Positions 56,009 through 59,488 of a stretch of 64,000 nucleotides of DNA are shown here, in pieces (positions within the stretch are counted from its first letter, which is position 1; each line of letters opens with the position of its first letter). The position numbers and the translations under genes were made by a program. The notes under the pieces were generated by a model. The model worked only from the letters and a program-made list of their open reading frames with translations. It did not search any database and had not been told where the DNA came from. Source of the stretch: Escherichia coli (GTDB taxonomy: Bacteria > Pseudomonadota > Gammaproteobacteria > Enterobacterales > Enterobacteriaceae); the NCBI RefSeq assembly GCF_003334315.1, contig NZ_QOWR01000018.1; one strand, 5' to 3'.

Positions 56009-57483
56009 TGGCAATTCTTGATGATGTGATTGGCGTTTTTTCACCAGGATGGAAAGCGGCAAGGCTGCGTTCCCGTGCGGTGATCCAGGCTTATGAGGCC
56101 GTAAAAACGACGCGGACACACAAAGCCCGACGGGAGAACCGAACTGCCGACCAGTTAAGCCAGTACGGGGCCGTGTCGTTACGTGAGCAGGCCCGTTACC
56201 TTGATAACAACCACGATCTGGTTATTGGTGTATTTGACAAGCTGGAAGAACGGGTGGTGGGGAAAAACGGGATTATTGTCGAGCCACATCCGGTATTACG
56301 CAATGGGGCCATTGCCCGTGACCTGGCTGCGGAGATTCGCACCCGATGGAGTGAATGGTCTGTCAGCCCGGAAGTCACCGGGCAGTTTACCCGTCCGATG
56401 CTGGAACGTCTGATGCTTCGTACCTGGCTGCGCGATGGTGAGGTGTTTGCCCAGATGGTTTCCGGGCGCATAAACAGCCTGACGCCTTCTGCCGGTGTTC
56501 ATTTCTGGCTGGAGGCGCTCGAGCCGGACTTTATTCCCATGACCAGTGATGAGAGCAACAGGCTGAATCAGGGCGTGTTTGTTGATGACTGGGGGCGTCC
56601 CGAAAAATATCTGGTGTATAAAAGTCGTCCTGTATCCGGACGGCAGATGGAAACCAAAGAAGTGGATGCAGAGCGAATGCTGCATCTTAAATTTGTTCGC
56701 CGTCTGCACCAGATGCGCGGGACGTCTTTATTGTCCGGTGTGCTGATCCGCCTCAGCGCCCTGAAAGAGTATGAAGATTCTGAGCTGACTGCAGCAAGGG
56801 TCGCCGCTGCTCTGGGGATGTACATCCGCAAAGGCGACGGACAGAGCTATGAAACGGATGGTAATGACAGCAAGGAGAATGAACGCGAGCTTACCATTCA
56901 GCCAGGCATTATTTACGACGATCTGAAACCCGGCGAAGAAATCGGAATGGTGAAGTCGGATCGCCCAAATCCTAACCTTGAAACTTTTCGTAATGCTCAG
57001 TTGCGTGCCGTGGCGGCGGGCAGTCGTCTGAGTTTTTCCAGTACAGCGCGCAACTATAACGGCACTTACAGCGCCCAGCGTCAGGAGCTGGTTGAATCCA
57101 CTGATGGCTACCTGATCCTGCAGGACTGGTTTATTGGTGCCGTCACCCGCCCGATGTATCGTGCCTGGCTGAAACAGGCTGTGGCATCCGGTGTTATCAG
57201 GCTACCCCGCGATCTTGACCGTTCTTCACTGTATACCGCGGTGTATTCCGGACCGGTGATGCCGTGGATTGACCCTGTTAAGGAGGCTGAGGCCTGGAAA
57301 ATCCAGATTCGTGGTGGAGCGGCGACAGAATCAGACTGGGTACGTGCAGGTGGTCGTAATCCGGATGATGTCAAACGTCGGCGCAAGGCCGAAATTGATG
57401 AAAACCGCAAGCTGGACCTGGTATTTGATACCGATCCGGCCAGTGATAAAGGAGGCAGCAGTGCCGCAACGAAACGACAGTAG
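56008..57483 (+). CDS. portal protein
   Basis: 491 aa ORF between W and the protease/capsid gene; TGATG overlap with W. Confidence 0.75.
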   Translation: MAILDDVIGVFSPGWKAARLRSRAVIQAYEAVKTTRTHKARRENRTADQLSQYGAVSLREQARYLDNNHDLVIGVFDKLEERVVGKNGIIVEPHPVLRNGAIARDLAAEIRTRWSEWSVSPEVTGQFTRPMLERLMLRTWLRDGEVFAQMVSGRINSLTPSAGVHFWLEALEPDFIPMTSDESNRLNQGVFVDDWGRPEKYLVYKSRPVSGRQMETKEVDAERMLHLKFVRRLHQMRGTSLLSGVLIRLSALKEYEDSELTAARVAAALGMYIRKGDGQSYETDGNDSKENERELTIQPGIIYDDLKPGEEIGMVKSDRPNPNLETFRNAQLRAVAAGSRLSFSSTARNYNGTYSAQRQELVESTDGYLILQDWFIGAVTRPMYRAWLKQAVASGVIRLPRDLDRSSLYTAVYSGPVMPWIDPVKEAEAWKIQIRGGAATESDWVRAGGRNPDDVKRRRKAEIDENRKLDLVFDTDPASDKGGSSAATKRQ

Positions 57484-59488
57484 CCGCAGTACACCGACGA
57501 CCAGTCCGAAGAATAATTCCTGGTTCAGGATGCAGGCTGGTCACCAGAGTGACGCGGATATTTATATTTATGACGAGATTGGTTTCTGGGGTGTTACAGC
57601 GAAGCAGTTTATCAGTGATCTGAATGCACTGGGCGATATCACCCACATTAATCTCCATATCAATTCACCGGGTGGCGATGTCTTTGAAGGCATCGCCATT
57701 TTTAATGCGCTGAAAACACATGGTGCGTCCATTACCGTTTATGTCGACGGTGTGGCGGCATCAATGGCGTCGGTCATTGCGATGGTGGGAAACCCGGTCA
57801 TTATGCCGGAAAACACCTTCATGATGATTCATAAACCATTTGGCTTTACGGGCGGTGATGCGGAGGACATGCGCACCTATGCCGACCTGCTCGATAAAGT
57901 TGAGGCGGTTCTGTTACCCGCTTATGCACAGAAAACCGGGAAAACCACCGATGAAATTGCTGCCATGCTGGCGGATGAGACCTGGATGTCCGGTGCCGAA
58001 TGTCTGGCACATGGATTTGCTGATCAGGTAACGCCAGCCGTTAAGGCAATGGCATGTATTCAGTCAAAACGTACAGAGGAATTTAAAAAGATGCCGGAAT
58101 CCATTCGAAACATGATTACTCCGCCACGCAACAGTGCTCCACGCGTACAGGATAATGAACCTGAAGCCTCCCGGACGCCAGTGCAGGCAGCAGCACCCGT
58201 GGTGGATGAAAACAGCATCCGTGCGCAGGTACTGGCAGAGCAAAAAGCGCGTGTAAACGGTATTAATGATCTGTTTGCCATGTTTGGCGGGCGTTATCAG
58301 ACGCTGCAGGCTCAGTGTCTTGCCGATCCTGAATGTTCGCTGGAGCAGGCCCGCGAAAAGCTGTTGAACGAGATGGGGCGCGAGTCCACGCCATCCAATA
58401 AAAATACCCCGGCTCATATTTATGCCGGTAACGGTAATTTTGTGGGGGACGGGATCCGCCAGGCGCTGATGGCGCGTGCCGGATTTGAAAAAACCGAACG
58501 TGATAATGTCTACAACGGGATGACCCTGCGTGAATATGCCCGTATGTCACTGACTGAACGGGGTATTGGGGTTTCCAGTTATAACCCGATGCAGATGGTC
58601 GGTGCGGCGTTCACACACAGTACGTCTGACTTCGGTAATATTCTGCTGGATGTTGCGAACAAAGCCATTCTGCAGGGCTGGGAAGATGCCCCTGAAACCT
58701 ATGAACAGTGGACGCGGACAGGTCAGTTGTCTGATTTTAAAATTGCCCATCGTGTGGGTATGGGGGGCTTCAGTGCTCTGCGTCAGGTGCGTGAAGGGGC
58801 GGAATATAAATACGTCACCACCGGAGATAAACAGGCCACTATTGCACTGGCGACCTATGGCGAGCTGTTCAGTATCACCCGTCAGGCCATTATCAATGAT
58901 GATCTGAATATGCTGACCGATGTCCCGATGAAGTTGGGCCGTGCGGCGAAATCCACTATTGCCGATCTGGTTTATGCCATTCTGACGTCTAACCCGAAAA
59001 TCTCCACAGATAATGTAAGTCTGTTCGATAAAGCGAAACATGCAAACGTACTGGAGAGCGCTGCAATGGACGTGGCATCGCTGGATAAAGCCCGCCAGTT
59101 GATGCGCGTTCAGAAAGAGGGGGAGCGTCATCTGAATATTCGTCCTGCGTTCGTACTGGTACCGACGGCGATGGAGTCTGTTGCTAACCAGGTCATTCGC
59201 TCCTCAAGTGTCAAGGGGGCTGACATTAACGCCGGTATTATTAACCCGGTGAAAGATTTTGCGACCGTTATTGCAGAGCCTCGTCTTGATGATAACAGCC
59301 AGACCACCTTCTACCTGGCTGCGTCAAAAGACTCCGATACGATTGAAGTGGCTTATCTCAACGGTGTGGATACGCCATATATTGATCAGATGGAGGGCTT
59401 CAGTGTGGATGGCGTGACAACGAAAGTGCGTATTGACGCCGGTGTCGCGCCAGTTGATCACCGCGGCCTGGTGAAATGTACGGCGTAA
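57461..59488 (+). CDS. prohead protease (ClpP/S49-like) fused to major capsid protein, GTG start
   Basis: N-terminal INSPGGDVFEG...VAASMASVIAMVG serine-protease motifs; long C-terminal domain in capsid position; AAAGGAGG RBS. Confidence 0.7.
   Translation: MPQRNDSSRSTPTTSPKNNSWFRMQAGHQSDADIYIYDEIGFWGVTAKQFISDLNALGDITHINLHINSPGGDVFEGIAIFNALKTHGASITVYVDGVAASMASVIAMVGNPVIMPENTFMMIHKPFGFTGGDAEDMRTYADLLDKVEAVLLPAYAQKTGKTTDEIAAMLADETWMSGAECLAHGFADQVTPAVKAMACIQSKRTEEFKKMPESIRNMITPPRNSAPRVQDNEPEASRTPVQAAAPVVDENSIRAQVLAEQKARVNGINDLFAMFGGRYQTLQAQCLADPECSLEQAREKLLNEMGRESTPSNKNTPAHIYAGNGNFVGDGIRQALMARAGFEKTERDNVYNGMTLREYARMSLTERGIGVSSYNPMQMVGAAFTHSTSDFGNILLDVANKAILQGWEDAPETYEQWTRTGQLSDFKIAHRVGMGGFSALRQVREGAEYKYVTTGDKQATIALATYGELFSITRQAIINDDLNMLTDVPMKLGRAAKSTIADLVYAILTSNPKISTDNVSLFDKAKHANVLESAAMDVASLDKARQLMRVQKEGERHLNIRPAFVLVPTAMESVANQVIRSSSVKGADINAGIINPVKDFATVIAEPRLDDNSQTTFYLAASKDSDTIEVAYLNGVDTPYIDQMEGFSVDGVTTKVRIDAGVAPVDHRGLVKCTA

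Follow-up and report, generated by a model that had tools for sequence, protein, structure and literature searches.

The 64,000-nt stretch of Escherichia coli DNA analysed here (the window) very probably carries, on its plus strand at 57461–59488, the capsid-building gene of a lambda-like prophage of the mEp460/cdtI/Gifsy-2 type, in which one 675-aa chain comprises a protease, a scaffold-like region and an HK97-fold major capsid protein. The assignment draws on the open reading frame, on the family models NF045540 and PHROG 133, and on identity to Gifsy-2 STM1034.3n. This arrangement is already known (Gifsy-2, 2010), is named in routine genome annotation and is curated as NF045540; the practical value of the present case lies in annotation, and it carries little weight as a discovery.

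Gene structure and genomic context

The fusion gene is a single open reading frame that runs from GTG 57461 to TAA 59486–59488 and contains 675 sense codons without an internal stop, an open frame expected in random sequence with a probability of ~1e-14 ((61/64)^675). The original prediction of a 675-aa ORF with a GTG start and a strong ribosome-binding site holds. Specifically, a Shine-Dalgarno (SD) sequence, AGGAGG, can be read at 57450–57455 on the plus strand, 5 nt upstream of the GTG, and its anti-SD pairing energy of −11.6 kcal/mol is the best among all in-frame starts of the gene. In addition, AAAGGAGG-N5-GTG is also found in the Eeyore and Stx2d phage homologues, and RefSeq places the start of the gene at the identical GTG.

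The fusion gene directly follows a portal protein gene of the lambda gpB type (56008–57483, plus strand; PHROG 21 portal, 1e-137; BLASTP to lambda gpB, 7e-10; RefSeq 'phage portal protein'), the 3′ end of which overlaps the start of the fusion gene by 23 nt. Downstream, the terminator scan finds an intrinsic-terminator-like element (GGCCC-GTAA-GGGCT plus a T run; 59512–59532, plus strand), composed of the GGCCCGTAAGGGCT hairpin at 59512–59525 and TTTTTTT to 59532, and the equivalent site in phage Ayreon is annotated 'terminator'. The element is followed by a gene for a 107-aa head decoration protein of the DUF2190 family (59575–59898, plus strand; PHROG 122 'head decoration', 5e-47; RefSeq 'DUF2190 family protein'). 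As first proposed, no separate scaffold or capsid gene precedes the hairpin: the interval from the portal gene to the hairpin contains no further family-matching ORF, and the ORFs that overlap the fusion gene in other frames and on the opposite strand give zero PHROG matches.

The window also contains DicF RNA, a csp leader and the neighbours ynfN and gnsB, markers that we take to be typical of the K-12 region with the defective Qin prophage, and these would fit a decayed cryptic prophage in which the function of the fusion gene has been lost. We consider such decay unlikely, because every gene of the head and tail block, terminase through tape measure, is an intact ORF that matches its family over the full length, the catalytic residues are intact, and plaque-forming phages carry copies with 99% identity to the fusion gene.

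Domain organization of the fusion protein

The domain search suggested with the original prediction recovers both ends of the chain, with Pfam CLP_protease at residues 31–191 and Phage_capsid_4 at residues 377–672, while NF045540, 'ClpP-like prohead protease/major capsid protein fusion protein', matches end to end with 984 bits versus a cut-off of 475 (residues 32–674 on profile positions 2–651 of 652). PHROG 133 is likewise matched over profile positions 3–667 of 668.

The N-terminal segment (residues 31–191; 57551–58033, plus strand; CLP_protease, 5e-36) is a ClpP-type serine protease domain. The codons of the catalytic residues Ser101 and His124 are located at 57761–57763 and 57830–57832, and that of the conserved acidic residue Glu173 at 57977–57979, all on the plus strand; the catalytic residues are retained in 127–128 of 129 homologues. 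The chain therefore has the ClpP-fold serine protease, complete with its catalytic Ser and His, that stands at the N-terminus of fusions of the NF045540/Gifsy-2 type. The protease had been described as ClpP/S49-like, of which the first half stands and the second does not: the model of ClpP-related head maturation proteases, NF045542, scores 216 bits against a cut-off of 120, whereas the S49 (SppA) model reaches only 22 bits against a cut-off of 155, with a marginal E-value of 8.5e-5. Judged by sequence, the protease is ClpP/S14-like, not S49.

The C-terminal segment (residues ~327–675; 58439–59485, plus strand) is assigned as an HK97-fold major capsid protein by Pfam, an AlphaFold model and Foldseek, which bears out the predicted capsid domain. 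Phage_capsid_4 (PF25209) matches with 1e-54 and Mu-like_gpT with 9e-5. The AlphaFold model of residues 246–675 has a pLDDT of 93 and contains N-arm helices, an E-loop, a spine helix (residues 483–510) and A and P domains; Foldseek matches it with probability 1.00 to the capsids of phiXacJX1, D3, HK97 and T5 and to encapsulins. The HK97 fold was shown through this separate C-terminal model because a fold search with the full-length model gave ClpP and crotonase matches only. A PDB sequence search with the capsid part returned only weak hits (2e-4) to the Mu-GpT-domain capsid chains 8rkc and 8rkx, and this search therefore yielded no solved structure of a close relative. The HK97-fold capsid protein thus lies in the same reading frame as the protease, as it does in NF045540/Gifsy-2-type fusions.

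GenBank names for the gene include 'head-tail preconnector protein Nu3', 'putative protease/scaffold protein' and 'head maturation protease', and BLASTP detects no similarity between its C-terminal half and lambda gpE, as might be expected if the ORF encoded a protease and scaffold only and the true capsid protein were encoded elsewhere. That reading is highly improbable in view of the Phage_capsid_4 match, the confident HK97-fold model with its capsid and encapsulin matches, the naming of the gene as major capsid protein or fusion in RefSeq and other records, and the interval from terminase to tail genes, which holds no other capsid-family ORF. The names have a consequence for annotation, since GenBank phage records often label the gene only 'protease', 'Nu3' or 'scaffold', and pipelines that seek a major capsid protein can therefore miss it. 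One study (PMC8814770), for example, retrieved no HK97-fold capsid protein for a group of phages that includes Gifsy-2.

The middle region and candidate processing sites

The protease and capsid domains of the fusion protein are separated by residues 192–326, a length that fits the ~130–200 residues expected of NF045540/Gifsy-2-type fusions. The region begins with a post-protease segment (residues 192–220; 58034–58120, plus strand), modelled as two short helices (pLDDT 77–85) and marked by the conserved motif [FY]208-x3-P212, with P212 present in 121 of 129 homologues and F/Y208 in 102 of 129. A disordered Pro/Ala-rich linker follows (residues 221–245; 58121–58195, plus strand; pLDDT <50), which is gap-rich and poorly conserved in family alignments.

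Residues 250–307 (58208–58381, plus strand) are modelled as a three-helix domain, with helices at 250–273, 280–288 and 294–307 (pLDDT 92–97). The family profile is collinear with lambda gpC residues 123–422, including the Nu3 part (hhalign 89%, E 2e-6), whereas pairwise BLASTP against lambda gpC is essentially negative (E 0.021), so that the remote relation to gpC is visible only by profile comparison. We infer from this remote profile match (89% probability) and from its position that the domain is a putative Nu3-like scaffold. Between it and the capsid domain lies a low-confidence hinge (residues 308–326; 58382–58438, plus strand; pLDDT 53–76 between two confident domains), which is gap-rich in homologues. 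This hinge is the likeliest candidate for the maturation cleavage region, at which the capsid protein would be freed.

An additional start inside the gene, at ATG 58091 (Met211), would yield a 465-aa protease-less protein consisting of scaffold and capsid parts, similar to Nu3, and would leave the protease on some subunits only. Nested starts have a precedent in lambda C/nu3 (Shaw and Murialdo 1980, as cited in PMC8508860), Met211-Pro212 does not vary among five closer relatives, the most distant at 57% identity, and all five have GAGGA or CAGGAG, within Glu/Gln-Glu codons, 9–11 nt upstream of the Met211 ATG. The invariance says little, since the five-sequence alignment contains several hundred invariant columns (mean column identity 75%), and the SD-like bases are also accounted for by conserved amino acids. 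In addition, their pairing reaches −6.0 kcal/mol versus −11.6 kcal/mol at the main start, with a long spacing. Across 129 wider homologues, the Met211 position is occupied by Ala, Val, Pro, Ile or Thr, and the internal start therefore cannot be family-wide. We regard it as a doubtful addition to the GTG 57461 product; if true of the enterobacterial/pseudomonad branch, it would make this a Nu3-style nested gene with a protease-to-capsid ratio below 1:1.

A programmed frameshift at the T-AAA-AAG run just before Met211 (58084–58090) was also considered, at which a −1 shift would terminate the chain ~23 codons on. Neither the Gifsy-2 nor the Pseudomonas homologues have the run, which is taken as chance.

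Distribution and integrity of the fusion

The check for a frameshift at the domain boundary, proposed together with the original prediction, gives a clear answer. The gene is uninterrupted, at ≥80% query coverage, in 2002 of 5426 complete E. coli genomes, that is, in more than one third of them, and its frame is likewise open in 28 phage records; the independently sequenced isolated phages Ayreon, mEp460, cdtI, Tritos and HannyBb carry copies that are 99% identical. Beyond E. coli, the Pseudomonas phage protein CF165a is homologous over its full length at 57% identity, and over 100 distant protein clusters at 35–48% identity retain the full-length architecture, with ~95 of their representatives aligning in a single stretch.

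A sequencing or assembly frameshift that joined separate protease/scaffold and capsid genes is a legitimate worry in general, as fusions of the portal to this gene occur among database proteins and represent artefacts or decay products. For the fusion gene itself, such an error is so improbable as to be negligible, given the identical open frame across those genomes and phage records, the collinear full-length homologues from 70% identity (Gifsy-2) downward, and the curated full-length HMMs NF045540 and PHROG 133. By sequence comparison, then, the fusion gene is real and no assembly artefact. The 1159-aa portal–protease–capsid proteins in the database likewise lend no support to a programmed portal-to-protease frameshift: their junctions are scattered over portal residues 421–491 at no fewer than eight distinct sites (≥8), which indicates single-base indels or errors and no programmed event.

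Proposed assembly route

By analogy with other phages, we infer the following route. Translation would start at GTG 57461 by coupling to the 3′ end of the portal gene. A T=7 procapsid would form from the capsid domains around the portal, with the protease and scaffold-like parts facing inward and replacing the separate scaffold and protease proteins of other phages. The enclosed proteases would then cut the linker and the hinge and digest what lies inside, so that a mature capsid protein of ~35–38 kDa remains. The shell would expand during DNA packaging, and the DUF2190 decoration protein, whose gene lies just downstream, would stabilise it. Through the fusion, protease and scaffold would accompany the capsid protein in a fixed 1:1 ratio and would need no separate targeting signal, and the family makes an attractive minimal capsid module that is predicted to process itself.

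Comparison with known systems

The closest characterized relative is Gifsy-2 STM1034.3n, with 70% identity over 669 aa. The order of ClpP domain, linker/helical region and capsid domain is the same, as are the terminase, W-like adaptor and portal genes upstream and a DUF2190 decoration homologue downstream (61% identity). The two differ by sequence divergence only, centred on the linker, with 13 gapped positions at residues ~225–320 in BLASTP; the E. coli copy has a GTG start and a shorter N-terminal extension. The abstract of the Gifsy-2 study reportedly describes T=7 geometry and a trimeric decoration protein. The trimeric decoration protein is located at the 3-fold axes (PMC8538268), and citing papers credit the 'tripartite capsid gene' to Effantin et al. 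(2010, Virology 402:355).

A three-in-one protein was likewise concluded for gp5 of Pseudomonas phage MD8 (PMC8508860), and Paracoccus prophages encode three-in-one proteins of ~700 aa (PMC6536676). These genes of ~690 aa share an N-terminal ClpP domain, a presumed middle scaffold and a C-terminal gpT/HK97-fold capsid protein with the E. coli fusion, but come from other hosts and are more distant in sequence; MD8 is likened here by its published description. A further family, NF045541 'prohead protease/major capsid protein fusion protein', matches residues 223–672, the scaffold-like and capsid parts, with 400 bits, below its cut-off of 525, and leaves the N-terminal protease part unmatched, which marks it as a sister family with a different protease region.

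In HK97, as in the fusion protein, the scaffold function lies N-terminal to an HK97-fold capsid protein and is removed by a phage protease, and Foldseek matches the capsid domain of the fusion to HK97 Head II. The HK97 protease, which has a herpesvirus-protease-like fold, is encoded by a separate gene (gp4), whereas that of the fusion is ClpP-like and resides in the capsid chain; no separate ORF of the HK97 gp4 type occurs between the portal and capsid genes of the prophage. HK97 also differs in its covalent chainmail and in having no decoration protein.

Lambda shares with the prophage the late-operon order of terminase, W, portal and protease, and a decoration protein. Its protease is of the S49 type, whereas that of the fusion is S14-like, and its decoration gene D precedes the capsid gene E, whereas the decoration gene of the prophage follows the capsid gene. 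The contrast with lambda drawn at the outset is borne out, with the refinement that nu3 is nested in C: lambda distributes these functions over C with nested nu3, D and E, while the E. coli prophage combines protease, scaffold-like region and capsid protein in one uninterrupted ORF.

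Results

The gene at 57461–59488 (+), encoding a ClpP-like prohead protease, a scaffold-like region and a major capsid protein in one chain, is nothing unusual: it belongs to an already known and very common family that has been described and curated. From end to end its product fits two family models, PHROG 133 and NCBIfam NF045540 ([quoted passage not shown]), the latter scoring 984 bits where the curated cut-off is 475. The frame runs uninterrupted from GTG 57461 to TAA 59486–59488 (675 sense codons in the window sequence). The AGGAGG at 57450–57455, 5 nt before the GTG, gives the strongest anti-Shine-Dalgarno pairing among the in-frame start codons (−11.6 kcal/mol; others −10.1 or weaker), and a hairpin with a T run, marked as a terminator in the record of phage Ayreon, lies 3′ of the gene at 59512–59532. 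These data confirm the original prediction of a single long ORF with a GTG start, a strong ribosome-binding site and a hairpin at 59512. ORFs overlapping the gene gave no family matches.

The gene starts within the last 23 nt of the portal gene (56008–57483), a layout typical of translational coupling. RefSeq starts it at GTG 57461, and the Ayreon record at ATG, codon 24. We prefer the GTG, because Ser20 and Trp21, which precede Met24, do not vary among five homologues and alignments of distant homologues begin at about residues 16–20.

An AlphaFold model of the full chain, built on an alignment of 112 sequences (mean pLDDT 89.3), places a ClpP fold at residues 21–191, a confident three-helix domain at 250–307 and a large alpha/beta domain at 327–675. 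Residues 1–20 are disordered, two short helices occupy 203–216, and the domains are separated by a disordered linker (221–245, pLDDT < 50) and a low-confidence hinge (308–326).

Pfam CLP_protease covers residues 31–191 (5e-36). The model for ClpP-related head maturation proteases gives 216 bits versus a cut-off of 120, and the SppA model only 22 bits versus 155; the domain, proposed to be ClpP/S49-like, is thus ClpP/S14-like, and the S49 part does not hold. When the protein was aligned with 128 distant homologues (129 sequences in all), Ser101 was kept in 128 sequences and His124 in 127, and position 173 was acidic in 121. Since these catalytic residues are conserved, the protease would be expected to be active.

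Pfam Phage_capsid_4 covers residues 377–672 (1e-54). A separate model of residues 246–675 (pLDDT 93.2) matches HK97-fold shells at a Foldseek probability of 1.00, among them many encapsulins and the capsids of phiXacJX1, D3, HK97 (Head II) and T5; on this basis the C-terminal half is an HK97-fold major capsid protein. Domain searches and model therefore agree with the earlier claim that protease and capsid share one gene.

Residues 213–324 align marginally with the Nu3 (scaffold) part of lambda gpC by pairwise BLASTP (E 0.021), and the family profile is collinear with gpC residues 123–422, the protease and Nu3 region (89% probability, E 2e-6). This similarity argues for residues 250–307 acting as a scaffold but falls short of proof.

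Two candidate internal expression signals stand where the protease domain ends. Met211 is invariant in close relatives, with GAGGA 9–11 nt 5′ of it, but the wider family has Ala, Val, Pro, Ile or Thr at that position, and an internal start is unlikely. Adjoining Met211, T-AAA-AAG (58084–58090) resembles a −1 slippery site; a shift there would end the chain about 23 codons on, as read by eye. The motif is probably a chance occurrence, because it is not conserved in Gifsy-2 (a Salmonella phage) or Pseudomonas homologues.

A frameshift or assembly artefact is ruled out by an intact frame in E. coli genomes, isolated phages, Gifsy-2, a Pseudomonas phage and distant clusters. Specifically, 2002 of the 5426 complete E. 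coli genomes match at least 80% of the query DNA, and in the E. coli records listed RefSeq labels the product a fusion protein. Copies 98.4–99.6% identical to the gene occur in phages that have been isolated, Ayreon, mEp460, cdtI, Tritos and HannyBb among them. Protein identity is 70% across 669 aa in Gifsy-2 and 57% in the Pseudomonas phage; about 95 of the best 150 matches among 1.84 billion cluster representatives span residues ~20–672 in a single stretch, at 35–48% identity. Judged by these comparisons, the fusion is old and widespread.

The frame is also open for 64 codons 5′ of the GTG, within the 3′ end of the portal gene (57269–57483), so any single-base deletion there joins portal to protease-capsid. 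About a dozen such "portal-protease-capsid" singletons (1080–1159 aa) occur in public databases. Their junctions, those of the 1159-aa proteins among them, fall at many different positions, and they look like scattered indels, from sequencing errors or decay, and not programmed frameshifting.

The late genes run from the small (start 53152) and large (start 53700) terminases through a W-like adaptor (start 55790), portal, fusion gene and terminator to a DUF2190 head decoration gene (59575–59898; PHROG 122, 5e-47), its product 61% identical to the Gifsy-2 counterpart, and tail genes. No second capsid gene is present in the head-gene region, from terminase to tail genes. The 91-aa product of 59891–60166 (+), named "DNA breaking-rejoining protein" in RefSeq, matches PHROG 153 "minor tail protein" (9e-47) and is a gpFII-like head-tail joining protein in the Ayreon record; these matches point to a head-tail connector role, and the RefSeq name is probably misleading. 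By eye, the C-terminal third of the gpV-like major tail protein (61160–61909, +) may be an Ig-like domain of the Big_2 type, such as lambda gpV also carries.

Position 1 of the cdtI and Tritos records aligns at ~52968, about 180 nt 5′ of the small terminase gene, with 98.6–98.7% identity onward; the cos (cohesive-end) site probably lies there. Rfam hits above gathering score are DicF antisense RNA (37581–37632, −), sok antitoxin RNA of a hok/sok-type module (43036–43210, +) and a cspA-type thermoregulator leader (50882–51298, +), which we take to be cargo commonly carried by E. coli lambdoid prophages at a Qin-like locus; in the matching RefSeq genome, ynfN and gnsB are neighbouring genes.

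Discussion

The gene thus has three modules, an intact catalytic set, a coupled start and a downstream decoration gene. If Gifsy-2, HK97 and lambda are a guide, capsid domains would assemble together on the portal, enclosing the protease and scaffold parts; self-digestion at the linker (221–245) and hinge (308–326) may follow, and then head expansion and decoration-protein binding.

Phage GenBank records variously name the gene "head-tail preconnector protein Nu3", "head-tail preconnector protease C", "protease/scaffold", "head maturation protease" or "Major head protein", and with such inconsistent names it can escape capsid-finding pipelines. Gifsy-2 is among phages without a retrieved HK97-fold capsid protein (PMC8814770).

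Gifsy-2, studied by Effantin and colleagues in 2010, is reportedly T=7 by cryo-EM. It is among the phages listed with a trimeric decoration protein at 3-fold axes (PMC8538268), and mEp213-type head proteins are said, in literature citing the 2010 study, to resemble Gifsy-2-type fused head proteins. A single 693-residue gene 5 encodes protease, scaffold and capsid protein in Pseudomonas phage MD8 (PMC8508860), and ClpP plus gpT proteins of nearly 700 aa occur in 34% of examined Siphoviridae prophages of Paracoccus (PMC6536676). In lambda the order is C (nu3 nested within it), D and E, whereas here there is one fusion gene; the contrast originally drawn with lambda's separate C, Nu3 and E genes is therefore correct.
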